A stretch of DNA of 64,000 nucleotides from Chloroflexota bacterium (GTDB taxonomy: Bacteria > Chloroflexota > Limnocylindria > QHBO01). Below are positions 6,772 to 49,280 of the stretch, piece after piece. Positions within the stretch are counted from its first letter, which is position 1. Every line of letters starts with the position of its first letter. Position numbers and translations under genes: made by a program. A model generated the notes under the pieces. The model was not told the DNA's origin. It was given only the letters and a program-made list of their open reading frames with translations, and searched no databases. The stretch lies in assembly GCA_038040195.1 (NCBI GenBank), contig JBBPIR010000001.1, forward strand, positions 417,341 to 481,340. Direction: 5' to 3'.

Positions 6772-8741
<1,970 letters not shown>

Positions 8742-8742
<1 letters not shown>

Positions 8743-38348: not shown

Positions 38349-41174
38349 GTGGCTTCAGGCTCCGCCAGTCCTCCGCGGCCCGACGCGCTGATCAGCGTGG
38401 CGCAGGCGGCTGCGGTGCTGGGTGTGCACCCGAACACCGTCCGGGCCTGGACCGAGAGCGGACGGCTGGCCGCCTGGCGCATCAACCCGCGCGGTGACCG
38501 GCGCTACCGCCGCGCCGACGTGGAGCGGCTGCTGGCCGAGGGCACCGGGAAGTCGACCGGCTCCGATGGTGCGCTCACTCCCTCAGCCCGGAGCACGGAT
38601 GCCGACGCCGAGGCGGCCGTGCTCACCCGAATCTCGCAGGGGACCGTCGAGGCTGGCAGCGTCGCCGCCGTCTGCCGCGTGACCGTCGAGTCGCTGCGCA
38701 CGGTCGAAGCCATCGCCCGAGTGGCGGTGTACCTCGTGCGCGACGATCGGCTGGTCCTCGAGACACACTCAGGGCACAGCGCCCCGCCTCCGCCCACCCT
38801 GGCCTGGCCATCCGACGCGGAGGATTTCGGGCCCGACGGCAGCTTGCGCCTGCCATTGACCATCGGCCAGGAGCGCATCGGGGTGCTCCTGCTGGCCGAC
38901 GACCTGAAAGGGGCATTCCTGCGAAGCCGGCGTCGATTCATGAGCGCGGTGGCCGCCACGACCAGTGTCGCGTTGCGCCACGCACGGGCCATCGCCCGGG
39001 CCCGCCGCGAGCTGACTCGGGCCCGCGCCCTGGCCGGCGTAACCCGCGAGCTGACCGGCCAGCTCGAGCTGGGCGCGGTCTTGAGCGACATCGCCGACCG
39101 CACCCGTGGCCTCTTCGACGCCGACCGCGTCGGCCTGTGGATGATCAACGAGGAGCGCGAGCATCCGTTCGAGCTGGCCGCCGAGCGCGGCATCAGCCCC
39201 GCCTTCCAGGCCATGATCAGCCGGCTGACCCTGACCAGCGCATCGCTGGGGACCCAGGCCGTCCGAGAGCGGCGCACGTTCGTCGCCCGCCACGCCGACA
39301 CCGACCCCACCACCGGCGTCATGCAGGAGGTCTACCGCGACGAGGGAATCAAAACCGCGTGCCTGGTGCCGCTCGTCACCCACGACCGCGCGGTGGGGGT
39401 GATCGGCCTATACCACGCGCGGGACCGCGATTGGCCCGACGACGAGCTGGCCCTGGCCCAGGCGTTCGCGAACCAGGCGGCCGTGGCCATCAGCAACGCG
39501 CGACTGTACCGCTCGACCGCCGAACAGGCGGCGCGCATGCGATCCATTCACGACCTGTCGGCCCGCCTGAACCGGCTGACCGATGTGCAGGCCATTGCCG
39601 ACGCGATCGTGGCCGAGGCCAGCACCCTGGCGGCCTTCCATGACATCCGCATCTACACCGTTGACTGGGAGCGGGGGACCTGCGAGCCGATCGCCTTCAC
39701 CGACCGCCTGACGGGGGAGGGGGACTTCCGCGACCTGTTGCGGGTCGACATCGGTCCCGGATCGTTCACCGGCTGGGTGGCCGCCAACGCGCAGCCCATC
39801 CTCAGCAACGATGCCCTGAACGACGGGCGGGGCCACACCATCGAGGGCACCGAGGAGATCGAGGAGTCGATGCTGGTGGTGCCCATGGTCTACGAGGGCC
39901 GCTCGGTGGGCGTCATCGCTCTGTCCAAGCTGGGCGTCAACCAATTCTCGACCGATGACCTGCAGACGATGATGATCTTCGCCGGCTACGCTGCCCAGGC
40001 GCTGGTCAACGCCCGGAGCTATCGGCGCCTGGAGGAGCAGTCCAGCCAGCTCGCCCGCCAGCTGGATTCGCAGCGCAAGCTGCTCGACGTCAGCGCCCGG
40101 GTCATGGGCACCCTGGAGCAGGAGGACATCCTGGAGGTGGTGGCCGACGGGCTGAAGGCGGTCGTCCACTACGACAACCTGTCCATCTACCGCGCCGACC
40201 ACGTCAAGCAGGTCCTGGTCCCGGTCCTCACCCGCGAGGAGCACGCCGAGGAGGTGGCCCGCTACATCATCCCGTTCGGGCGGGGCCTGATGGGCTGGGT
40301 GGTCGAGCACGCCGAGGCGGTGCTGGCCAACGACGCGCTGGCCGACCCCCGCGCGCTTCAGATCCCGGGCACGCCGCCCGACGCTGAGGCGCTGGTCGTG
40401 GTGCCCCTCATCAGCGACGGCCAGGTGAACGGCGCCATGAACGTCGGCCGGGTGGGCGGCGAGGAGGTCTACTTCAGCGAGACCGATTTCGAGCTCGTGC
40501 AGCTGTTCGCCGCTCAGGCTTCGGTCGCCCTGCGAAACGCGGACGAGCACCACGCCATGAGCCTGCGGGCGTTGACCGATGCCCTCACCGGGCTGGCCAA
40601 CCACGGGGCCTTTCAGCGCGACCTGACGTCCGCCATTGAGGCGGTGCAGAGCGGGCAGTCCGGTGAGGGCCAGCTTGGCCTGCTGATGATGGACCTCGAC
40701 CGATTCAAGACCTACAACGATCGCTTCGGCCATCCGGCCGGCGACGCGCTCCTGCACGCCGTGGGCGAGGCGCTGTATTCCGCCACCCGCAGCGATGACC
40801 GGGTGTACCGATATGGCGGCGACGAATTCGCGATCATCCTGTCGGGCGTCGGCCTGCCCGAGGCCCAACGGGTCGCGGAGCGGGCACGGCGGTTAGTGGC
40901 CGCCGTCTCCCTGGAACGCGGCGCGGCGCCGGTGACGATCACGATCGGCGTGGCGCTCTTCCCGGACCACGGCGCCAGCAAGGACGCGCTGATCGCGGCC
41001 GCTGACGGCGCGCTCTACAGCGGCAAGCAGGCGGGAGGCGACCGGGTGATCGTGCCGGGCGAAGCGCCGAAAACCCGCAGCCGGAAGGCCGCAGAGCCGG
41101 TCGACCCCGGACGCGCCGAAGAGCAGCGCCGCCGCCGCAGCGACGCCCGCCGCGCGAAGTCGTCCGCCGCCTGA
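38349..41174 (+). CDS. Multidomain signalling protein: N-terminal MerR/excisionase-type HTH, about four GAF domains, C-terminal GGDEF diguanylate cyclase
   Basis: HTH (VAQAAAVLGVHPNTVRAWTESGRLAAWRINPRGDRRYRRADV); repeated GAF cores; GGDEF active site RYGGDEF with I-site RSDD five residues upstream. Confidence 0.8.
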   Translation: MASGSASPPRPDALISVAQAAAVLGVHPNTVRAWTESGRLAAWRINPRGDRRYRRADVERLLAEGTGKSTGSDGALTPSARSTDADAEAAVLTRISQGTVEAGSVAAVCRVTVESLRTVEAIARVAVYLVRDDRLVLETHSGHSAPPPPTLAWPSDAEDFGPDGSLRLPLTIGQERIGVLLLADDLKGAFLRSRRRFMSAVAATTSVALRHARAIARARRELTRARALAGVTRELTGQLELGAVLSDIADRTRGLFDADRVGLWMINEEREHPFELAAERGISPAFQAMISRLTLTSASLGTQAVRERRTFVARHADTDPTTGVMQEVYRDEGIKTACLVPLVTHDRAVGVIGLYHARDRDWPDDELALAQAFANQAAVAISNARLYRSTAEQAARMRSIHDLSARLNRLTDVQAIADAIVAEASTLAAFHDIRIYTVDWERGTCEPIAFTDRLTGEGDFRDLLRVDIGPGSFTGWVAANAQPILSNDALNDGRGHTIEGTEEIEESMLVVPMVYEGRSVGVIALSKLGVNQFSTDDLQTMMIFAGYAAQALVNARSYRRLEEQSSQLARQLDSQRKLLDVSARVMGTLEQEDILEVVADGLKAVVHYDNLSIYRADHVKQVLVPVLTREEHAEEVARYIIPFGRGLMGWVVEHAEAVLANDALADPRALQIPGTPPDAEALVVVPLISDGQVNGAMNVGRVGGEEVYFSETDFELVQLFAAQASVALRNADEHHAMSLRALTDALTGLANHGAFQRDLTSAIEAVQSGQSGEGQLGLLMMDLDRFKTYNDRFGHPAGDALLHAVGEALYSATRSDDRVYRYGGDEFAIILSGVGLPEAQRVAERARRLVAAVSLERGAAPVTITIGVALFPDHGASKDALIAAADGALYSGKQAGGDRVIVPGEAPKTRSRKAAEPVDPGRAEEQRRRRSDARRAKSSAA

Positions 41175-41219
41175 CCCTCGTCCGGCCCACGACGGGCCGG
41201 GTGCTATCCTCGGCCCCCC

Positions 41220-41915
41220 ATGCGTGATCGACGCCGCGTCCCGCTGCGCCCTGCGGCGATGGCGCTCCTGGTGGCCGCCCTCTCCGCCGCCTGTGTGACC
41301 TCCCCCTCGCCCACGCCCTCCCCCAGCCTCACGCCGCGCCCGACCCCGACTCCCACCCCGTCCCCGACCCCGGTCCCCACCCCCCGCTTCACGAATGAAC
41401 CCGATCCCAGCCTGTCGGCCCTCATCCCGGCCCAGGTCGGGGCGTGGGCCGTGGAGCAGCCGCCGATCGCGGATTACGCCATCACGCCGGGCGACATCGG
41501 TCAGGCGGCCTACGGGGAGCTTGGCGCCCGGTTCCAGACCCTGGTCATCGCCTTCGTCCGGGAACCCCGACTGAGCCTGTATGCCGTGCGGGTGAACCCA
41601 TCGGCGGTGACCACGCCCGACCTCGAGCCCTACCTTGCCACGGCCGGCCGCTACGTGGGCATCGCCGGCCTCCAGCGCGAACCCTGGGAGCTGGCCGACG
41701 TCGCCGGGCACTGGGTCTGGGTTCGGCCCTCGGACGACGCGACCCTGCCTGGCACCCACGTCTACACCTGGGCCGCAGACGAGTTCGTGTTCCTCCTGAT
41801 CGGCGTCAGCGATGAAGTCAACCAGGCGCTGATCGCCCTCCTCCCCGGTGAGCCACCCCCAACCCCCAGCCCCGCGCCGACCACGAGCCCGGCGCCCAGT
41901 CCCAGCGCCTCCTAG
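41220..41915 (+). CDS. Hypothetical lipoprotein with Pro/Thr/Ser-rich linkers
   Basis: Signal peptide with lipobox LSAAC; PT-rich low-complexity linkers flanking a roughly 150-aa globular region. Confidence 0.5.
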   Translation: MRDRRRVPLRPAAMALLVAALSAACVTSPSPTPSPSLTPRPTPTPTPSPTPVPTPRFTNEPDPSLSALIPAQVGAWAVEQPPIADYAITPGDIGQAAYGELGARFQTLVIAFVREPRLSLYAVRVNPSAVTTPDLEPYLATAGRYVGIAGLQREPWELADVAGHWVWVRPSDDATLPGTHVYTWAADEFVFLLIGVSDEVNQALIALLPGEPPPTPSPAPTTSPAPSPSAS

Positions 41916-41932
41916 ACTGGCAAGCCAGACCC

Positions 41933-42931
41933 ATGGATGACGACCTGGCCGGCCCGGCCCGCAAGCGCGATCGGCTGGCGCGTCTGCTGGCGGTGGCCTC
42001 GATCCTGTACGCCAAGGGCAGCACCGAGCAGGGCGTGCCCGTGTCCGAGATCGCCCGCCTGACGGGCATGAATGTGCGGACCGTGTACCGCGACCTGCGC
42101 GCCCTCGAGGACGAGCTGGCGATGCCCATCTTCCAGGCCGGTCGAGGCCGTTACGGGATCGAGCGCCGCTTCTTCCTGCCGCCACTCCACCTGACCGTGC
42201 CGGAAGCCATCGTCCTGTTCCTCGCCGCGCGGCTCATCGCGCGCTGGTCCGATGAGTCGGACCAGGTCGTCATCAGCGCCTTCATGAAGATCGCCAGTGA
42301 GCTCCCGCAGCCCATCGCGCGCCATGTGACCGCCACCATGCTGGTCATCGGCGAGCAGCGCCTCAACGAGCCGTTCACGGCCATCTTCAACGTCGTGGCC
42401 CGCGGCTGGGCCGAGGGCCGGGTGGTGGAGATCACGTACGACTCCGGCACCGGCCCGGCCCGCCACACACGGTTCCGGCCCTACCTGCTGGAGCCGTTCG
42501 CCGCCGGACGCAGCATCTACCTCATCGGCCACGACGAGACCGTTGACGCCATGCGGACCTACAAGGTGGAGCGCATCCGTCAGGCGACCCTCACCCTCGA
42601 CCGATACGAGATCCCCGACGCGTTCGACCCGGACCAATTCCTGGCCAACTCGTGGGGCATCTGGTCGTCGGACACCACCCCGCCGGTCGACGTTCGGCTG
42701 CGCTTCGATGCCGGCGTGGCGCGCCGCGTCCGGGAGACCATCTGGCATCGCTCGCAGGTCCTCACCGACCTCCCCGACGGAGGAGTCGAGCTGACCGTCC
42801 GGGTGGCGGGCATCGTCGAGATCCGGCCCTGGGTCCTCTCCTGGGGCGACCAGGTGGAGGTGCTTGCCCCGCCGGAGCTGCGCGAGGCGGTGGCCGGAGC
42901 GGTGCGGGGCGCGACCGAGCGCTACGCCTGA
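41933..42931 (+). CDS. WYL-domain transcriptional regulator (HTH-WYL-WCX architecture, PafBC/YafY-like)
   Basis: N-terminal HTH (VSEIARLTGMNVRTVYRDLRALE); central WYL-like region (GRVVEITYDSGTGPARHTRFRPYLLE...SIYLIGHD); C-terminal extension. Confidence 0.8.
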   Translation: MDDDLAGPARKRDRLARLLAVASILYAKGSTEQGVPVSEIARLTGMNVRTVYRDLRALEDELAMPIFQAGRGRYGIERRFFLPPLHLTVPEAIVLFLAARLIARWSDESDQVVISAFMKIASELPQPIARHVTATMLVIGEQRLNEPFTAIFNVVARGWAEGRVVEITYDSGTGPARHTRFRPYLLEPFAAGRSIYLIGHDETVDAMRTYKVERIRQATLTLDRYEIPDAFDPDQFLANSWGIWSSDTTPPVDVRLRFDAGVARRVRETIWHRSQVLTDLPDGGVELTVRVAGIVEIRPWVLSWGDQVEVLAPPELREAVAGAVRGATERYA

Positions 42932-43626
42932 GGCTCGCCCAGCGGGAGCCGCAGGATGAGGGCCAGGGTTGGCCGGGGCCGAGGTTGGGCCGGTAACACC
43001 GGCGCCCGCAGCCACGCGTCCCCGGCCGCGCCGGCGCGGTATCGGGCCGACAGGCGGCGCGCGGAGAGGCCCTCGATCCCCAGCCGTGCCAGGGCCTCGG
43101 CCACCAGGGTCCCGTCGTCCGGATATCCATGCCCGACCGTGATCCGGTCGCCCGGGGCCAGGATCGCCCCCAGCCACTCGCGCCGGATTCGGAACGAGCG
43201 CCGGGTGATCGGCTCCCCGGCCGCCCACAGCAGGTCGGCGGCGACGTACGCCGCGCGGCCGGCATGCGGCTGCCGCCCACTGAGTCGGGCGCGCAGGAGT
43301 TCGGGGTCCGGTCGACCCTCGGGATCCAGCACGAGCAGGGTGCCGTCAAGCACGACCCCGTCCTCGGCCAGCTGATCGGGCAGCTCCCCAAGCTCTGGGA
43401 ATGCGCCCTCGGCATCCGCCAATCCGGCGACCTGGAGCCGAACGCGGCCACGTTCCGCCGAGGCTACCGCGCGGGCACCGGGCCACCACGGCTCAAAAAA
43501 GTAGTCGGGGTGGTCGAACGCGGCGTCGACCTCGGTCGGCTGCATGGTGTTGACGCGATCCGGCAGACGGAGCCGGGGAGAGTCGAGCGCGGGAAGCTCC
43601 GGCAGGGGGAGCTGTTCGGCCGGCAC
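42922..43626 (-). CDS. LigD-like ATP-dependent DNA ligase nucleotidyltransferase domain with degenerate catalytic motifs (putative pseudo-ligase or gene remnant)
   Basis: Clear similarity to the ligase adenylation domain (VRLQVAGLADAEGAFPEL ... LDGTLLVLDPEGRPD ... EGLSARRLSARYRAG). Motif I reads EPWWPGARA instead of EPKWDGFRA, so the adenylated Lys and the Asp are absent; no OB domain. Confidence 0.5.
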   Translation of the reverse strand: MPAEQLPLPELPALDSPRLRLPDRVNTMQPTEVDAAFDHPDYFFEPWWPGARAVASAERGRVRLQVAGLADAEGAFPELGELPDQLAEDGVVLDGTLLVLDPEGRPDPELLRARLSGRQPHAGRAAYVAADLLWAAGEPITRRSFRIRREWLGAILAPGDRITVGHGYPDDGTLVAEALARLGIEGLSARRLSARYRAGAAGDAWLRAPVLPAQPRPRPTLALILRLPLGEPQA

Positions 43627-43634
43627 GCCGGCGC

Positions 43635-44549
43635 TCAGGCGGTCTTGCGCCGCCGGGTCTGACGCTCACCGGCGGCGGCCGGCTCGGCCTTCTTGGCTCG
43701 GCTGGCAGCCTTGGCTCCGCCTGCCGCCTTGGCCTTGGCAGCCGGTCCACCGGCGGCCGCATCGCGGCGCGCCTCCCGAGCAGCGGACACGCTGGCCTCC
43801 AGCGCGGCCATCAGGTCTCCGATCCGGGTCGGCTCGGCCTTGGCGATCGGCGTCGGCTCCTCGCCGGCCACCTTGGACTCGATGACGCCCATCAGCGCCT
43901 GGCGGTAGTCGTCCTGGAACTCCTCGGCCTTGAACTCGCCGGTCATCGACGCGATGAGCTGCTCGGCCATCTTGCGCTCGGAGGCCTTGATCTCGATACC
44001 GCTGCTGTCCACCGCCAGCTCTTCTACAGAGCGGATTTCATCGGGCCAATGGAGGGTGGTCAGCAACATGGTGTCGGCGTACGGGTTGATGGCGGCCAGC
44101 TGCTCGCGGTCCTTCATGACCACCTTGCAGATGGCGCTCTTCCCGGTGTCGGCCAGCACCTCGCGGAGGAGGAAGAACGCCTTCTTGCCAACCGGATCGG
44201 GCTCGAGGTAGTAGGCGCTCTTCACGAACTGCGCCCCGTGCTCCTCTTTCTGGGCGTCCACGAACATGGCAATCTCGATGGCCCGGATGGTCTTCAGCGG
44301 CACGGCTTCCAGATCGTCGTCGGTGACCACCACGTACCGACCCTTGCTCCATTCATAGCCTCGGACCGTCTCGGAGCGGGGCACGACCTCGTCGTGATGC
44401 GGGCAATAGATCTTCATCTGGATCCGGTTCAGGCAGCTCGCGTGCAGCATGTTGAACCCGATTCCGGTCGACTCGGTGGCGAGGTACAGCTTGACGGGGA
44501 TCGTGACGAGTCCGAACTGGATCGCCCCCCGCCACATCGCGCGTGCCAT
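43635..44549 (-). CDS. ku: Ku protein (non-homologous end joining DNA end-binding protein)
   Basis: Ku core (MWRGAIQFGLVTIPVKLY ... HDEVVPRSETVRGYE ... YYLEPD); basic Lys/Ala-rich C-terminal tail. Confidence 0.85.
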   Translation of the reverse strand: MARAMWRGAIQFGLVTIPVKLYLATESTGIGFNMLHASCLNRIQMKIYCPHHDEVVPRSETVRGYEWSKGRYVVVTDDDLEAVPLKTIRAIEIAMFVDAQKEEHGAQFVKSAYYLEPDPVGKKAFFLLREVLADTGKSAICKVVMKDREQLAAINPYADTMLLTTLHWPDEIRSVEELAVDSSGIEIKASERKMAEQLIASMTGEFKAEEFQDDYRQALMGVIESKVAGEEPTPIAKAEPTRIGDLMAALEASVSAAREARRDAAAGGPAAKAKAAGGAKAASRAKKAEPAAAGERQTRRRKTA

Positions 44550-44691
44550 AGGGTGGGTTAGGTTACACCCCTCCGCCAACTGCTCAGCAGAGGGCAGCCG
44601 GTGCGCCAGTACTACTGGGGTGCCCGTTCAGCGGCATTGCCGATTCAGGCGTCCCATCCGAGACTCCCCGCGTGACATATCGGCCGACGAC

Positions 44692-45171
44692 CTACGCATT
44701 CGATCGATCGGGCCCGGTGATGACCACAAGCGCTTCCCGATCGGGCTGCCCGGCTTGACGCAGCCGATACCGATGCTCCAGCGTCACCGACCGGCTCAGC
44801 ATGGCGCTGACCGGGCAGTAGCGGGTGGCCGACAGCTCGATGGCCCGGTGCAGGGCCTCGGGCTCCACCGCCCCGCTGAGCTGGTGCTCGATCACGATCC
44901 GGGTAAAGACCTGCGGCGGACGCGCAGCCGTTACGGCCTCCACCGCCACCTGGTAGCTGCTGGGCGCCTGGCGCTTCTTGGCCAGGATGGCCGCCACGTC
45001 CATCCCGGTGCAGCCGGCCAGGCCCACCAGCACCGCCTCGCGCGGGGAGGCCCCGGCTGGAGTCCCGGCATCCGGGCTGTCGATCGTGACCGTGAAGCCG
45101 GACCCGGTCTCCGCGTCGGCCCGCAGCGAGGACGCGGGCGCGGGGAACGTGGCCAGGACCCGCATCGGCAC
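44692..45171 (-). CDS. OsmC/Ohr-family peroxiredoxin-like protein
   Basis: OsmC fold with the two conserved Cys (LAGCTGMDV and ATRYCPVSAM). Confidence 0.8.
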   Translation of the reverse strand: MPMRVLATFPAPASSLRADAETGSGFTVTIDSPDAGTPAGASPREAVLVGLAGCTGMDVAAILAKKRQAPSSYQVAVEAVTAARPPQVFTRIVIEHQLSGAVEPEALHRAIELSATRYCPVSAMLSRSVTLEHRYRLRQAGQPDREALVVITGPDRSNA

Positions 45172-45223
45172 GGGGCGACTCTACCAGCGCTCCGGCGCCG
45201 CCCACGCATGGGAAGCTGAAACG

Positions 45224-45781
45224 ATGCAGGTCCTGACGCCGGAGCATCCGCCGCGCCGATTCGAATGGTTGCGGGCCCGGCGGGACCCGACGGCGGAGGC
45301 CGACGGGCGGGCCCTCGAAAAGCTGCTGGCGCCAGTCCTGGACGACTCGTACGTCCTCGTACTGTCGCCCCGTATCCCCGGTGTCGATCGCGGCCTGCAC
45401 GGATTGCTCATCGGGCCCGGCGGCGTGCGGGCGCTGCTCGTCCGCCATTGGAACGGCCATTTCCGCCAGCGCGGCCGGGCCTGGGAATACGACGCTCGGG
45501 GGCGACGGGGGTGGGTGCCGTGCCGAACCGATCCCACCCGCGACGGGCGACGGATCGTGGACCAGGTCGGGCGCTGGATGACGGACGCGCTCGGCACCCG
45601 GCTGCCGATCGAGGCTGCCATCGCCTTCCCGGATCGACACAGCCGGATCGAGCTCACCAGCGACCCGGTCACCGAGGTCGTGACCATCGACAACGCCCCG
45701 TGGTGGGGCAAACGCGTGGGGCGAGTCCGCCAGCTGGATGGACGAAGCGCCGGCCGCCTGCTCGAGGCGCTCGGGGCGTGA
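45224..45781 (+). CDS. NERD (nuclease-related domain)-like protein
   Basis: Central segment (GLHGLLIGPGGVRALLVRHWNG) resembles the NERD core (hhhIsp.GVFVIEtKnysG); ATG at 45224; the upstream part of the ORF is antisense to osmC and discounted. Confidence 0.5.
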   Translation: MQVLTPEHPPRRFEWLRARRDPTAEADGRALEKLLAPVLDDSYVLVLSPRIPGVDRGLHGLLIGPGGVRALLVRHWNGHFRQRGRAWEYDARGRRGWVPCRTDPTRDGRRIVDQVGRWMTDALGTRLPIEAAIAFPDRHSRIELTSDPVTEVVTIDNAPWWGKRVGRVRQLDGRSAGRLLEALGA

Positions 45782-45807
45782 GGAGCGCTCGAGAGGCCGC
45801 TCCGGGG

Positions 45808-46410
45808 CTAGGCCGGTTCCTCCGGGGGCAGCCAGTCGCGAACGGCATCCTCGGGAAGGATGTCGGCCAGCAGCTCCTCGGGAGCTTCGTCGTCGGACGA
45901 CAGGAGGACCTCGGCCAGGCTGCGCTGGACGGCCAGCACCGGTGACTGGCGGTTGAACTGCGGGTACTCGGCGCAGACGACCGACACGTCGGTCAGCGCC
46001 AGGAATCGGTCCGAAGCGTTGAGCAAACCGTCCATCGGGCGGCTGCCCTGCGGGACATGGATCATGCCGGTCAGCCAGAATGGGCGGACCGCGATCTGGG
46101 TCTGCACCGGGCGCTTCGGGATGCGCAGCTCATCGGCGCTGCTGTCGTCCACCCCGCTGCTGCTCCCGAACAGGACGGCCTCAACCGGAACCATGACCTG
46201 CTGCGCCGTGCGCGTCGAGCCGGGGTCCGCGTAGTCGGTGACGGTGGCTTCTTCGACGATCAGGTGAGTGGAGCTGCTCAGGTTGAGGATGTCGGCGACA
46301 CGCCGGAAGCGGGTGGCCATCCGGCCGCTGACCCGATACCCGGAGGTGTACAGCTCCACCTGGACCTGCACGACCTGAGGGCCAAACTCACCGCTGTCCC
46401 AATCGGTCAC
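45808..46410 (-). CDS. Hypothetical protein (200 aa), acidic C-terminus
   Basis: Uninterrupted ORF with no recognisable motif; lies between the NERD gene and the DNA ligase gene. Confidence 0.4.
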   Translation of the reverse strand: MTDWDSGEFGPQVVQVQVELYTSGYRVSGRMATRFRRVADILNLSSSTHLIVEEATVTDYADPGSTRTAQQVMVPVEAVLFGSSSGVDDSSADELRIPKRPVQTQIAVRPFWLTGMIHVPQGSRPMDGLLNASDRFLALTDVSVVCAEYPQFNRQSPVLAVQRSLAEVLLSSDDEAPEELLADILPEDAVRDWLPPEEPA

Positions 46411-46433
46411 CTTGGGATGCTACCGCGTGTGAG

Positions 46434-48158
46434 CTACTCGCCGTCCAGCTTGCCAGTGGCGGCGATCCGGGCCTCGCTGCCGCCACGCCCGGTGGCCAGC
46501 AGGATCCGCCCGCTGGCCTGGGCCTGGTACAGGGTCTCCACGGTGGCCAGGTCATCGATCTCGGCCACGGTCTTGTCGTCGCGCACTCGCACGATCCGTG
46601 GGAAGCGCAGCGCGAACCCGCTCCCGTGCCGACCGCTGCGCATGATCCGATCGAACGCGATCTCAACCACGACCTCCGGCACCACGCTCCGGAAGCGTCC
46701 GAAGTCGCGCACCGTGGTGCGCAGGAAATGCTCGGTGAAGGCGGCGATCTCGGCATCGGTCAGGCCGGTGTAGGCCTTGCCGATGACGGCCAGCGAGGCA
46801 CCGTCCGGCTCGCGCACGGCAAAGGTGTAGTCCGACAGGACGCCGCGACGCTTGCCGTGGCCCCACTCCACGCCGACCACCACGCAATCCAGGGTGGCCA
46901 GCGCCTTCTTCAGCTTCAGCCAGCCCAGGCCGCGCCGGCCGGGCTGGTAGACCGAGGTCGGGTCTTTGACCATCAGCCCCTCGTTGTGCCGCTCACGGGC
47001 GGCGTCGAACAGCTCGTCCACTTCCTCCGCTGAGCGGGCCCGGTTCAGGCGCGCGTACAGGAACCGGGCGTCGGTTCGCTCGGGGAGCTCGAGGCGCTCG
47101 AGAGCGGTGCGCCGATCCCGAAGTGGCCGCTCCAGCAGGTCCGCTCCGTTCAGATGGAGGAGGTCGAACGCGACCAGGGCGACGGGCACGCGCTCGAGAA
47201 GGGCGGCGTCGGGCCGTACTCGGCCCAGACGAGTCTGGAGAGCCGCGAAGTCCAGCACCGCGCCCGCCTTGAAGGGCACGAGCTCACCGTCGAGCACGAG
47301 CGACTCGGACAGGTCCGCGACGGCCGCCGTGACCTCCGGGAAGGAAACCGTGATCTCCTTCAGGTCACGACTGAACAGCCGACCCTGGCCGTCGCGGAGG
47401 TGGAGCTGAGCCCGGATGCCGTCGTACTTGTCCTCCACCCAGGCCTCGGACCCGACCCGCCGCATGACCTCGGCCGCGTCGCCGACCGGAGTCGCCAGCA
47501 TGGGCCGGATGGGCCGACCCAGGTCCAGCGCGGCCTGGTCGAGCGTTCCCCGGCGGGCCAGTTGGGCCGCCTCGCCCGGCTCGCCGAGCAGCATGAGCGC
47601 CCGGCGGACCGATTCGAGCGGCGCCGCGAAAGCAGCGGCGATGGCCTCTTCGAGCAGCCCTTCGCGCAGGCCGATGCGCAGCTCGCGCGCCGCGATGCGG
47701 CCCACGTAGCGGGCCTCGGCCGGGGTCGCGCGCCGGAACAGGTCGGCCATCAGGGCCACCCGCGCCTCGGCGCTCGAGGCATCGGACATGGCCCGGTAGC
47801 CGCGTGCCACATCGGACACGGTAAGCGGCGGCCCCGCCGATTGCCGGCCGGCGAGCAGCTCCGCGGCCACATCCCCGAAGTCCGAGTGGCGCAGCCAGGC
47901 AGCCGACATGGCGCTCTCGTCCACACCGCTGGCCGCCGCCAGCGCGGCCGCCTGCTGGACCCAGCCCAGGCCCAGGCGGTCCGCGGCGCCGGGGAGCGGC
48001 TTGCCCGACAGGAAAGTGGCCGCCGACGGCAGGTCGCCGGCGGGCAGCTCGCGCAGGTAGGTCGCCAGCCGATCCCGCTTGGCCAGCTTGGAGCGGGTGG
48101 CGGCCACGTCGTCGGCGGCGGTCGCGAACGCGGCAAACGGGGAGCTGCGGGGCGCCAT
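46434..48158 (-). CDS. lig: ATP-dependent DNA ligase (Lig1-like, LigB/LigC type) with DNA-binding, adenylation and OB domains
   Basis: Motif I WVEDKYDGIRAQL with catalytic Lys, plus motif III, IV and V equivalents (FDLLHLNG..., EGLMVKDPTSVYQPGRRGLGWLKLK). Confidence 0.85.
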   Translation of the reverse strand: MAPRSSPFAAFATAADDVAATRSKLAKRDRLATYLRELPAGDLPSAATFLSGKPLPGAADRLGLGWVQQAAALAAASGVDESAMSAAWLRHSDFGDVAAELLAGRQSAGPPLTVSDVARGYRAMSDASSAEARVALMADLFRRATPAEARYVGRIAARELRIGLREGLLEEAIAAAFAAPLESVRRALMLLGEPGEAAQLARRGTLDQAALDLGRPIRPMLATPVGDAAEVMRRVGSEAWVEDKYDGIRAQLHLRDGQGRLFSRDLKEITVSFPEVTAAVADLSESLVLDGELVPFKAGAVLDFAALQTRLGRVRPDAALLERVPVALVAFDLLHLNGADLLERPLRDRRTALERLELPERTDARFLYARLNRARSAEEVDELFDAARERHNEGLMVKDPTSVYQPGRRGLGWLKLKKALATLDCVVVGVEWGHGKRRGVLSDYTFAVREPDGASLAVIGKAYTGLTDAEIAAFTEHFLRTTVRDFGRFRSVVPEVVVEIAFDRIMRSGRHGSGFALRFPRIVRVRDDKTVAEIDDLATVETLYQAQASGRILLATGRGGSEARIAATGKLDGE

Positions 48159-48254
48159 CGGAGGAGTCTAGGCGCCCGCTTGACGGGCGCCTACGGTCCG
48201 GCCACCCTTGCGGGCAATGGTGTCCTGGCAACGCAGCCCGTCACTGAAACGACC

Positions 48255-48590
48255 GTGACCGCCCAGCCACAACCGCGGCGCCTCTCCCCGCTGTGGCGGA
48301 CCGCGGTCATCTGCTTCGTCGGCCTGACCGTATCGGGAGCATTGATCGCGCTGTCGCTTTTCACGCGCAACGTCGACCTGTTCGTCATCCTGACCCTGGT
48401 CGCAACCTTCCTCTCGGCCGGGGTCGGGGTGTTCGCCGCGATCCAGGGCTGGAGGGGGTCGCAGCGGGCGGCGGCCCGGGGCGCGCAGGGCCGTTCGGCG
48501 GCTATTGCCGTGGCGGCCGGGCTCATGCTGATCGTCACCGCGGTCGCCATCTCGGGCGCGATTTGGGTCGGCCTTCTGTTCTTCCTGTAG
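48255..48590 (+). CDS. Small hypothetical membrane protein (3 TM)
   Basis: Hydrophobic helices (AVICFVGLTVSGALIALSLF, VILTLVATFLSAGVGVFAAI, LMLIVTAVAISGAIWVGLLFFL); start codon uncertain (GTG 48255 or CTG 48225). Confidence 0.3.
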   Translation: MTAQPQPRRLSPLWRTAVICFVGLTVSGALIALSLFTRNVDLFVILTLVATFLSAGVGVFAAIQGWRGSQRAAARGAQGRSAAIAVAAGLMLIVTAVAISGAIWVGLLFFL

Positions 48591-48619
48591 ACCGACATCG
48601 GCCTACCATGTGGTCGACC

Positions 48620-48696
48620 GCCCCCATCGTCTAGAGGCCTAGGACGCCACCCTTTCAAGGTGGAGATCACCGGTTCGAATCCGGTTGGGGGCGCCA
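48620..48696 (+). tRNA. tRNA-Glu (anticodon UUC)
   Basis: Cloverleaf read directly: acceptor GCCCCCA/UGGGGGC; D-arm UCUAGAGGCCUAGGA (typical of tRNA-Glu); anticodon loop CUUUCAA; T-arm GGUUCGAAUCC; encoded CCA. Confidence 0.85.
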
Positions 48697-48699
48697 ACC

Positions 48700-48879
48700 C
48701 TAGACGTGATGGATCTCCATCCGCTCCCCGCACTCGGGGCAGTGGAGCAGGAGCAGCTTCGGATCGTCCGCCGAGGGCCGCCAGGTGTAGACATCGGCCT
48801 CAGTCACGATCTCGCCGCAGGTTGGGCACTCGGCTCCGAACACCAGCCACTGCTCGCGCGGCAACGACTGACGGCCCAC
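48700..48879 (-). CDS. Small zinc-ribbon protein (two CPxCG motifs)
   Basis: CPTCG...CPECG pair about 27 residues apart; GTG (or TTG) start inferred; sits directly after the tRNA 3' end on the opposite strand. Confidence 0.3.
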   Translation of the reverse strand: MGRQSLPREQWLVFGAECPTCGEIVTEADVYTWRPSADDPKLLLLHCPECGERMEIHHV

Positions 48880-48887
48880 GGCGGTGC

Positions 48888-49280
48888 CTAGTCCTCGGCG
48901 GGGGTATCGGTCGGCGTCGGCCCGGCAGGGGGCGGAGGCTCCCAGCCCGGCATCCGGGAGGGCGGTTCGGAGAGCACCTCGCGGGCGGCCGCGGCCTCCT
49001 CGGGGCTGGCCAGCAGGGAGTAGCGCATGGCGTCGTAGCCCGGCCAATGGCCCACGTCGCCGTCGCGGATCATGACCGCGCGCTTGAGATGGGTGCCGGT
49101 GACGTCCTGGACCGAGCGGTCGAGCACCTCGTAGTCACGCCCGGTGACCTCTCGCAGCGCGTCGGGCAGGGTCTCGACCAAGTAGTAGGGATCGGGGTTG
49201 ACGGCCAGCGCCCGGCCCAGCGCCTCGACCACGGTCGCATCGGGCAGGTCGCGGGGGAGTGGACGGCTGATGTATTCCAT
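48888..49280 (-). CDS. Hypothetical protein (130 aa), Pro-rich C-terminus
   Basis: ATG at 49280; no domain recognised; the rest of the 448-aa ORF is low-complexity antisense to galU and discounted. Confidence 0.35.
   Translation of the reverse strand: MEYISRPLPRDLPDATVVEALGRALAVNPDPYYLVETLPDALREVTGRDYEVLDRSVQDVTGTHLKRAVMIRDGDVGHWPGYDAMRYSLLASPEEAAAAREVLSEPPSRMPGWEPPPPAGPTPTDTPAED

Follow-up and report, generated by a model that had tools for sequence, protein, structure and literature searches.

The ku Locus in the Window

End joining in bacteria is commonly portrayed as the work of two proteins, Ku and LigD. We analyzed a stretch of 64,000 nucleotides from a Chloroflexota bacterium (contig JBBPIR010000001.1, positions 417,341 to 481,340; henceforth the window, in which all coordinates below are counted from its first nucleotide) where ku is followed by a gene for a ligase-like protein with replaced catalytic residues, which we refer to as psLig (pseudo-ligase). 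The window has a G+C content of ~70%, and its proteins are 94–99% identical to those of contigs from metagenome-assembled genomes of Candidatus Limnocylindria (Chloroflexota), for example, locus L002. The ku and psLig genes lie among seven genes within 6.2 kb that also encode a WYL-domain transcription regulator, an OsmC-family protein, a protein with a distant NERD-like region, a DUF6812 protein, and a three-domain ATP-dependent DNA ligase. An earlier interpretation made from the letters of the window (the sequence-only reading) had described these genes as a damage-inducible nonhomologous end joining (NHEJ) island, and all seven open reading frames are present on the strands that it assigned to them. 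For comparison, we used 80 fetched loci that carry psLig relatives (labeled, e.g., L002 and L005) and further loci such as L082; promoters and motifs were searched for on both strands of the window and the related loci, amounting to 1.33 Mb, and the spread of psLig among species was determined by scanning a single genome from each species with a sequence pattern.

A Ligase-Derived Protein with Replaced Catalytic Residues Is Encoded Next to Ku

psLig (234 aa; 42922–43626, minus strand) consists of a LigD-type adenylation, or nucleotidyltransferase (NTase), domain only. Its sole Pfam domain is PF01068 (DNA_ligase_A_M), which matches with 30.4 bits (cutoff 26.2), and its best NCBIfam models are of the LigD type (NF007210, 1.4e-26; TIGR02779, 1.3e-20), all of them far under their cutoffs (for TIGR02779, 73.9 vs. 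an equivalog cutoff of 227.75). The OB domain (PF04679) gave no match in psLig, which stops 27 residues past motif V. The gene begins with a GTG 8 bp past the ku stop codon, and the first 27 residues of its product align with the N-terminus of canonical ligase (LIG) domains (LPxxxxPMLA); therefore, the 234-aa long form is the real one. Many psLig homologs carry the JGI annotation "bifunctional non-homologous end joining protein LigD," and some NCBI records begin at Met28 (207 aa); both the naming and these starts are likely mis-annotations.

The catalytic motifs were read from an alignment of psLig to the ligase domain of Mycobacterium tuberculosis LigD (1vs0, 6nhx). Motif I, FEGKWDG in LigD, is FEPWWPG in psLig (residues 44–50; 43477–43497, minus strand), with the AMP-accepting Lys481 replaced by Trp47 and Asp483 by Pro49; DGE of motif III has become DGT (Glu to T96); FWAFDLL of motif IIIa has become YVAADLL, in which the adenine-stacking aromatic residue is gone; EGVIAK of motif IV is EGLSAR (Lys to R190); and WVK of motif V is WLR (Lys to R207). 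All five catalytic replacements are invariant in 20 aligned homologs that are 66–95% identical to psLig of the window, Arg52 of motif I being retained in the same alignment, and they are also kept in those 50%-identity cluster representatives of the WWPG clade that span the motifs; this clade comprises most of the 35 representatives scoring less than 1e-30. The claim that the gene beside ku is ligase related and yet catalytically degenerate is therefore upheld both by the PF01068 match and by these replacements.

The place of the OB domain is taken by a conserved C-terminal tail, RPRPTLALILRLPLG (residues 216–231; 42934–42981, minus strand), the core of which is invariant in the 20-homolog alignment and which every full-length protein of the WWPG clade possesses. 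In an AlphaFold2 (AF2) model, the tail forms a short helix with a predicted local distance difference test score (pLDDT) of 66–77, and it is a candidate partner-binding peptide. The model as a whole reaches a pLDDT of 91.6 when built from a deep alignment that includes active ligases and 37 when built from a shallow alignment of the family, with less confidence in the tail and in the first 20 residues. Foldseek matched it to ligase adenylation domains with TMq 0.66–0.73 and a root mean square deviation of ~2.5 Å; for 6nhx and 1vs0, the e value is 1e-13, TMq is ~0.68, and identity to the LIG domain of LigD is ~30%. psLig is descended from the ligase domain of LigD and has kept the adenylation fold. 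Because the nucleophile, the lysine-borne ribose and phosphate contacts, and the OB domain are all gone, it should be incapable of self-adenylylation and of nick sealing. The protein contains no lysine, and among 120 homologs 91 have none and 26 have one; we gave this no weight because lysine is scarce genome-wide (~1–2.5%) and another protein encoded in the window (6772–8742) is likewise lysine-free.

Relatives of psLig are encoded in 195 species genomes, nearly all of which are labeled Limnocylindria or Chloroflexota; where a different label is given, in a few cases, it is probably a binning error because the genes flanking psLig on those contigs match Limnocylindria loci. The reading frame is intact in the 80 loci and has a codon-position GC pattern typical of coding sequence, the aligned homologs show 75% mean column identity with 90 invariant positions, and the ratio of nonsynonymous to synonymous substitution rates (dN/dS) is 0.04–0.16 in most pairs of close relatives, which is the same range as for Ku, the WYL regulator, and the intact ligase. 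Such a pattern strongly indicates purifying selection, itself strong, on a functional gene and not a relic.

Conservation of the ku–psLig Pair and Its Neighborhood

Ku of the window (304 aa; 43635–44549, minus strand) is composed of the Ku core and a Lys/Ala-rich C-terminal arm and matches TIGR02772 with 271.2 bits (cutoff 150) and PF02735 with 142.8 bits (1.6e-41). The ku gene lies directly upstream of psLig in 78 of the 80 loci, and both exceptions are cut by contig ends; L085 and L086 also have ku upstream of psLig. The tie between Ku and the adjacent LigD-like gene, as suggested by the sequence-only reading, is thus a conserved one that involves a gene evolving with dN/dS ~0.1. In L082, which is located on a 1.88-Mb contig, psLig is only 44% identical to that of the window and has a start that overlaps ku by 4 bp; the other neighbors differ (urease, MoxR/DUF58, beta-CASP hydrolase, and ABC transporter genes), and a search within 6 kb for the WYL, OsmC, NERD-like, DUF6812, and ligase genes found none of them. 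The beta-CASP gene of L082 (7261–8394) encodes a 377-aa beta-CASP/RMMBL metallo-hydrolase and lies 550 bp downstream of ku–psLig on the same strand; Artemis and RNase J belong to this fold family, and the adjacency could be coincidence.

Among the 80 loci, the remaining genes of the proposed island are frequently present no more than 10 kb from psLig (WYL in 72, OsmC in 66, the ligase in 62, the NERD-like gene in 60, and DUF6812 in 50), but they are not tightly linked to it. The distance between WYL and psLig is 1.7, 2.3, or 4.5 kb in relatives, and that between the ligase gene and psLig varies as well; in many relatives unrelated genes have been inserted, those between psLig and WYL being for a Wzy_C/TPR membrane protein and for a CYTH protein and that between ku and osmC for a response regulator. 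Because the housekeeping flanks (GGDEF-GAF, UTP-glucose-1-phosphate uridylyltransferase-like [sugar-nucleotidyltransferase], and Ser/Thr kinase genes) are equally syntenic, the shared neighbors reflect the general gene order of the class and are no evidence of a module. As gene order indicates, the conserved unit is a predicted two-gene ku–psLig operon and not a seven-gene co-regulated island, since the divergent psLig of L082 keeps Ku as its sole shared neighbor.

The window and loci L005 and L015 are 95–97% identical in nucleotide sequence over ~9 kb, and this identity drops with sharp edges to 71–77% between 42940 and 43750 (unstranded), a tract that spans psLig together with the last ~38 codons of ku, which encode the Lys/Ala-rich tail. 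The synonymous substitution rate (dS) of psLig in this comparison is 1.03 compared with 0.13–0.19 in the neighboring genes, and the psLig allele of L005 is nearest to that of L010. The bounded drop in identity and the high dS therefore mark an allele replacement in which psLig and the Ku tail were exchanged together by recombination. A joint swap of this kind fits co-adapted partners.

The ku Promoter and Its Candidate Regulator

The most likely start of ku is ATG 44549 (MARAMW...), and TTG 44579, which is listed as its start, is a promoter element. Aligning the regions upstream of ku from 71 related loci and the window yielded the consensus TTGc-N6-G(G/T)TG-TAnnnT-N6-CC, and a weight table made from these sequences locates the window promoter, TTGGCGGAGGGGTGTAACCT, at 44560–44579 (minus strand), with the TTG near −26 (−26 to −24), GGTG at −16 to −13, and the −10 hexamer TAACCT; a −35 element at normal spacing is absent. 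The ATG lies 10 nt past the −10 hexamer and the mRNA is therefore predicted to be leaderless or nearly so; the ku leaders of other loci are ~30–80 nt long. The strict form of this pattern occurs 55 times in the 1.33 Mb searched and all occurrences are upstream of ku; therefore, it is neither a general promoter type nor common to the other genes of the proposed island. No other copy was found before the ligase, WYL, osmC/NERD-like, and DUF6812 genes or elsewhere in the 64-kb window, so that the motif is absent from the divergent osmC/NERD-like region where the sequence-only reading had proposed to look for one, and a scan of 41000–48800 for consensus sigma-70 promoters and intrinsic terminators found none. 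Because the promoter has no −35 and has a conserved element near −26, its sequence points to expression of ku–psLig that is activator dependent rather than constitutive.

GTAC and GGTCC are ~4–5-fold enriched in the 70 nt upstream of ku promoters, and 51 of the 55 promoters have at least one of them. The version found in the window is the palindrome CCAGTAGTACTGG (44606–44618, unstranded), which lies upstream of the TTG of the promoter by 27 nt, and elements of this type are candidate operator sites for some regulator. Near-matches to CCAGTAGTACTGG number 20 in the window compared with 6 expected, and they are scattered, lying mostly within genes and in lower-GC ends. GTAC repeats or palindromes were observed 30–70 nt upstream of the ku −10 in the window and in L062, L065, L076, L077, and L078; examples include GGTAC-N7-GTACC and GGTACTGATGG repeated with an 11-nt period. 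In other loci, CAATGGCGnGATGGTCCT is found in their place.

The WYL gene (41933–42931, plus strand) is convergent with psLig, and the 3′ ends of the two overlap by 10 bp. As the sequence-only reading had it, the product is a genuine WYL regulator with HTH-WYL-WCX architecture: PF13280 (1.2e-11) and PF25583 (1.6e-21) match above cutoff, several HTH models match residues 30–66, and the nearest solved relative is DriD, an activator that senses single-stranded DNA (8tp8, 9pfq; e value ~1e-10), followed by PafC (2.6e-4); the HTH_PafC model gives 21 bits, under its cutoff of 32 bits. PADLOC identified no defense system among the island proteins; the regulator alone was matched, by the generic WYL and Cas3c-N-terminal (WYL) models, and psLig, OsmC, the NERD-like protein, DUF6812, and the ligase were without any match. 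The two genes ahead of WYL on the same strand (38349–41915) encode a 941-aa protein with an HTH-like N-terminal region, GAF repeats, and GGDEF and a Pro/Thr-rich protein of 231 aa whose N-terminus is probably of the signal or lipoprotein type. The gaps in this run are 45 and 17 bp, the latter separating the 231-aa gene from WYL, and the regulator may be part of the GGDEF-GAF/231-aa transcription unit and not of the ku locus.

PafBC promoters have the form tGTCgg(N10)tA(N3)T, with an element at −26 and no −35 (PMC8635444), and DriD promoters are likewise without a −35 (PMC13004042). The ku promoter resembles these types in its bipartite structure, good TAnnnT −10, missing −35, and conserved element at about −26, as well as in having a WYL-family gene nearby. 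It differs in that its element is TTGc at −26 to −23 instead of GTC at −27 to −25 and in that the −10 is directly preceded by an additional invariant G(G/T)TG. In addition, PafBC is a heterodimer encoded by a tandem PafB/PafC pair, whereas the window has a single DriD-like WYL gene, and unlike in these two comparison systems no regulon beyond ku was found in the 1.33 Mb searched. The earlier suggestion of a PafBC-type promoter before ku thus stands for the architecture and does not stand for sequence and register. By analogy, the DriD-like WYL protein is a candidate activator of the ku promoter.

Other Neighboring Genes

The OsmC-family protein (44692–45171, minus strand) matches PF02566 with 62 bits against a cutoff of 27.5 (7.8e-17), and its gene is a syntenic neighbor outside the core unit. 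The three-domain ATP-dependent DNA ligase (46434–48158, minus strand) is Lig1/LigB-like and matches PF04675, PF01068, and PF04679 above their cutoffs and TIGR00574 with 269.8 against 217.8; its translation contains the intact motifs KYDGIR, LDGELV, EGLMVK, and WLKLKK, and its best solved relatives are archaeal replicative-type ligases (1e-86). Together with Ku, these two proteins had been identified correctly from the letters. A 200-aa gene that had been left unassigned, 23 bp downstream of the ligase gene on the same strand (45808–46410, minus strand), encodes a DUF6812 protein (PF20660, 4.3e-12). Just past the ligase gene are a tRNA-Glu(TTC) gene (48620–48696, plus strand) and a 115-aa open reading frame with weak zinc-ribbon matches (48700–49047, minus strand).

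The NERD assignment is weak. The gene in question probably starts at ATG 45224 and not at the mechanically listed 44978, and its 185-aa product (45224–45781, plus strand) matches PF08378 with 14.3 bits (E = 0.06), below the cutoff of 22.1. NERD is the sole recurring family among the orthologs (9 of 36 at E ≤ 1, the best 4e-4), and the protein is possibly a distant NERD relative at most. In an alignment inspected by eye, the Asp/Glu positions of the PD-(D/E)xK nuclease motif appear not to be conserved and Arg74 occupies the Lys position, and a sequence search of solved structures returned no relative. It may represent another protein of this neighborhood with a nuclease fold that is catalytically degenerate. 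Trp, Arg, and Pro positions are invariant in the family.

LigD Loci and Lysine-less Paralogs in Related Genomes

A domain search of the window found no active LIG domain with polymerase (POL) and/or PE domains beside ku. Such genes were found in relatives. L086, a long-read contig that contains frameshifts, carries in this order ku, psLig, ligD, and a gene for the LigD polymerase domain; its psLig has FEPWWPG and the tail RELPPFLALLRRLPL, and its LigD combines PE with a ligase domain that is active (FEPKWDG, DGE, AMAK, WLKLK). psLig can therefore act beside a real LigD. L087 contains ku (its Ku being 63% identical to that of the window), ligD (PE-LIG), and pol and has no psLig, and L089 and L090 encode LigD (PE-LIG-OB) and PolDom at a locus without Ku. 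Among the best 120 matches listed, at least three PolDom proteins, which share 66% identity with that of L086, are labeled Candidatus Limnocylindria or Limnocylindrales by NCBI. From these arrangements, a plausible origin of psLig would be duplication of a ligase adenylation domain beside ku, after which the catalytic LigD was separated or lost.

Other ligase relatives have also lost the motif I lysine. The paralog represented by P0271 (247 aa; L083 6001–6744, L084 3919–4662) has FEPRWGG in motif I, keeps DGE, and ends in the tail RPxLALIQRLPLE; its gene lies 36 bp downstream of PPK2, with PPK1 and CYTH-CHAD genes nearby and no Ku. A second set of LigD/LigC-like proteins of 340–400 aa without the motif I lysine (FEVLWDG, FEIDWDG, FEPAWDG, FEVRWDG) has kept the OB domain (representatives P0154, P0159, P0164–P0166, P0187, P0207, and P0228). 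The gene for P0159 (FEVLWDG, 355 aa) is tail to tail with that of a full 927-aa LigD (L092 979–2046 and 2056–4839). P0144 (FEPLYDG, 327 aa), from Dehalococcoidia, has likewise kept the OB domain, and its 3.5-kb contig shows no NHEJ neighbors. P0159 and P0144 resemble psLig in the loss of the motif I lysine and differ from it in that the PF04679 OB domain is present and the WWPG motif and the C-terminal tail are absent. Lysine-less ligase paralogs may recur in the vicinity of NHEJ genes.

Proposed Role of psLig and Alternatives

We propose that psLig is a noncatalytic partner of Ku, an adaptor for end binding or synapsis that is encoded in a two-gene ku–psLig operon, and we give this reading a probability of roughly 0.55. 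psLig would be translated right behind Ku from the pair's own −35-less promoter and would dock on Ku, possibly through the C-terminal arm of Ku as does the ligase domain of M. tuberculosis LigD. The docked protein would then help to hold or mark DNA ends or pass them to a real ligase, and the Arg residues of motifs IV and V might still read the 5′-phosphate. Sealing could be performed by a canonical LigD encoded elsewhere, by the nearby three-domain ligase, or by LigA. In M. tuberculosis LigD, D522, K579, and L580 contact the Ku C-terminus, and binding of the D522R variant to Ku alone was not measurable (bioRxiv 10.64898/2025.12.12.693941). Mapped onto psLig, D522 corresponds to E88 and L580 to W151, both invariant, and K579 corresponds to E150, which is variable. 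According to PMC7969030, LigD prolongs Ku-mediated synapsis from ~2 s to ~18 s.

Several observations weigh against this proposal. The third interface residue, K579, falls on a variable position, and the mapping as a whole depends on one preprint and a sequence alignment; the AF2 model is that of a psLig monomer alone. Within psLig, the motifs of the former active site show the greatest invariance, which could mean a new ligand or chemistry instead of pure scaffolding, and the P0271 paralog, which is encoded beside PPK2 without Ku, implies that the fold and tail can serve a Ku-independent role, a use as a scaffold that is perhaps tied to polyphosphate. The recombination tract is a single event in which the Ku tail may have been included through mere adjacency. 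Finally, what ties the WYL gene to the ku promoter is proximity alone, and that proximity varies, and the TTGC element of the promoter is unlike the PafBC GTC and 2 nt nearer to the −10. A fuller version of the proposal, in which psLig is a dedicated NHEJ factor that docks on the Ku arm and binds 5′-phosphate ends for synapsis or protection, in an operon activated by the WYL regulator through its −26-element promoter, is tentative, and we would give it well under an even chance.

The island of the sequence-only reading, in which a WYL regulator would render all seven genes damage inducible and the downstream three-domain ligase would perform the ligation, is unlikely. In its favor are the seven genes within 6.2 kb in an arrangement that recurs in many Limnocylindria, a ligase that is catalytically intact by its motifs, a DriD-like regulator, and a ku promoter without −35. 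However, the housekeeping flanks are as syntenic as the island itself, Wzy_C/TPR, CYTH, and response regulator genes are interposed in relatives, ku–psLig of L082 is without the other five genes within 6 kb, the ku promoter motif precedes no other gene, and WYL stands in a codirectional run behind the GGDEF-GAF and 231-aa genes. The idea that ligation is outsourced is further weakened by the canonical LigD (PE-LIG) and PolDom loci in relatives, by the existence of Limnocylindria-labeled PolDom proteins, and by a report, as cited in PMC5124664, that mycobacterial LigB is dispensable for end joining.

psLig could instead be a brake, that is, a dominant-negative ligase mimic that occupies Ku or the 5′-phosphate end and would shield ends or keep mutagenic joining from occurring until a real ligase displaces it. 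A retained ligase fold and possible Ku-contact surface with the chemistry gone would suit such a role, as would Arg in place of Lys in motifs IV and V, which contact phosphate and could still bind it, and production of psLig stoichiometrically with Ku from one predicted transcript; the allele swap at ku–psLig alone among close relatives could also reflect conflict-type selection. This explanation is nevertheless improbable because psLig of L086 is part of a complete ku–ligD–pol operon, an odd position for an inhibitor, and the low dN/dS gives no sign of diversifying selection.

Somewhat more doubtful is the possibility that the remodeled pocket of psLig has acquired a new enzymatic or ligand-binding function, for example, for a nucleotide or a polyphosphate-derived signal, with a regulatory linkage to Ku. 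Invariance within the protein is highest in FEPWWPG, DGT, SAR, and WLR, Arg52 is retained, a paralog with the same tail is encoded beside PPK2, PPK1, and CYTH-CHAD, and a CYTH gene is next to psLig in some Limnocylindria. On the other hand, the adenine-stacking aromatic residue of motif IIIa and the ribose-binding Glu are lost, Pro and Trp of motif I probably fill the pocket, and no other catalytic-looking residues were identified in psLig. That psLig is a decaying LigD remnant, a pseudogene, or an annotation artefact, as its weak domain match (30 bits), missing OB domain, and complete loss of catalytic residues might suggest, has next to no probability, and decay into a pseudogene is excluded by the reading frame being intact in 80 loci, dN/dS of ~0.1, the 90 invariant positions, the confident fold, and the coding GC pattern.

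Comparison with Known Systems

A literature search returned nothing relevant on a Ku-associated inactive ligase or on NHEJ in Limnocylindria, its incomplete coverage making this weak evidence of absence; as far as the searched literature shows, a conserved, Ku-coupled pseudo-ligase without an OB domain has not been described before. psLig would be a natural separation-of-function variant, a ligase fold without its chemistry, and lets the contribution of the ligase body beyond sealing (Ku docking, end recognition, and synapsis) be addressed. To our knowledge, work in eukaryotes addresses this contribution only through an engineered dead ligase IV. Surveys of NHEJ that rely on domain matches will mis-score organisms encoding psLig, and the mis-naming of psLig as LigD and the Met28 starts would inflate counts of NHEJ-positive genomes. 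The ku-specific promoter provides a handle on the control of break repair in a poorly known lineage that is abundant in soil and freshwater, and WYL activation of ku–psLig, if true, would extend DNA-repair control resembling sigma adaptation outside Actinobacteria.

psLig resembles the LIG domain of LigD (M. tuberculosis Rv0938; 1VS0, 6NHX) in its adenylation fold, ~30% identity, adjacency to ku, and conservation of two Ku-contact positions. It differs in having no OB, POL, or PE domain, in the replacement of Lys and Asp in motif I, Glu in motif III, and Lys in motifs IV and V, and in its tail, RPxLALIxRLPLG, which is absent from LigD. NHEJ genes are also split in Streptomyces, which has ligC, ligD, and pol (PMC5124664), and in Methanocella paludicola, for which separate Lig, Pol, and PE are cited in PMC7719229. 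The psLig loci resemble these systems in that the functions of LigD are distributed over separate genes and a protein with only a ligase domain is associated with ku; however, the stand-alone ligase domains of split systems keep NTase and OB domains and are treated as active, whereas psLig is NTase-only and, by its motifs, apparently dead.

Noncatalytic scaffolds of NHEJ are known from eukaryotes, where they include XRCC4, XLF, and PAXX, and DNA ligase IV has a role in synapsis that is independent of catalysis. psLig has no homology to XRCC4 or XLF. The role that we propose for it is nonetheless the same as that of XRCC4, XLF, PAXX, and ligase IV in synapsis, namely that of a protein that works with Ku at DNA ends independently of ligation, and, if this is true, psLig would be a bacterial counterpart of XRCC4/XLF or of the structural role of a catalytically dead ligase IV.

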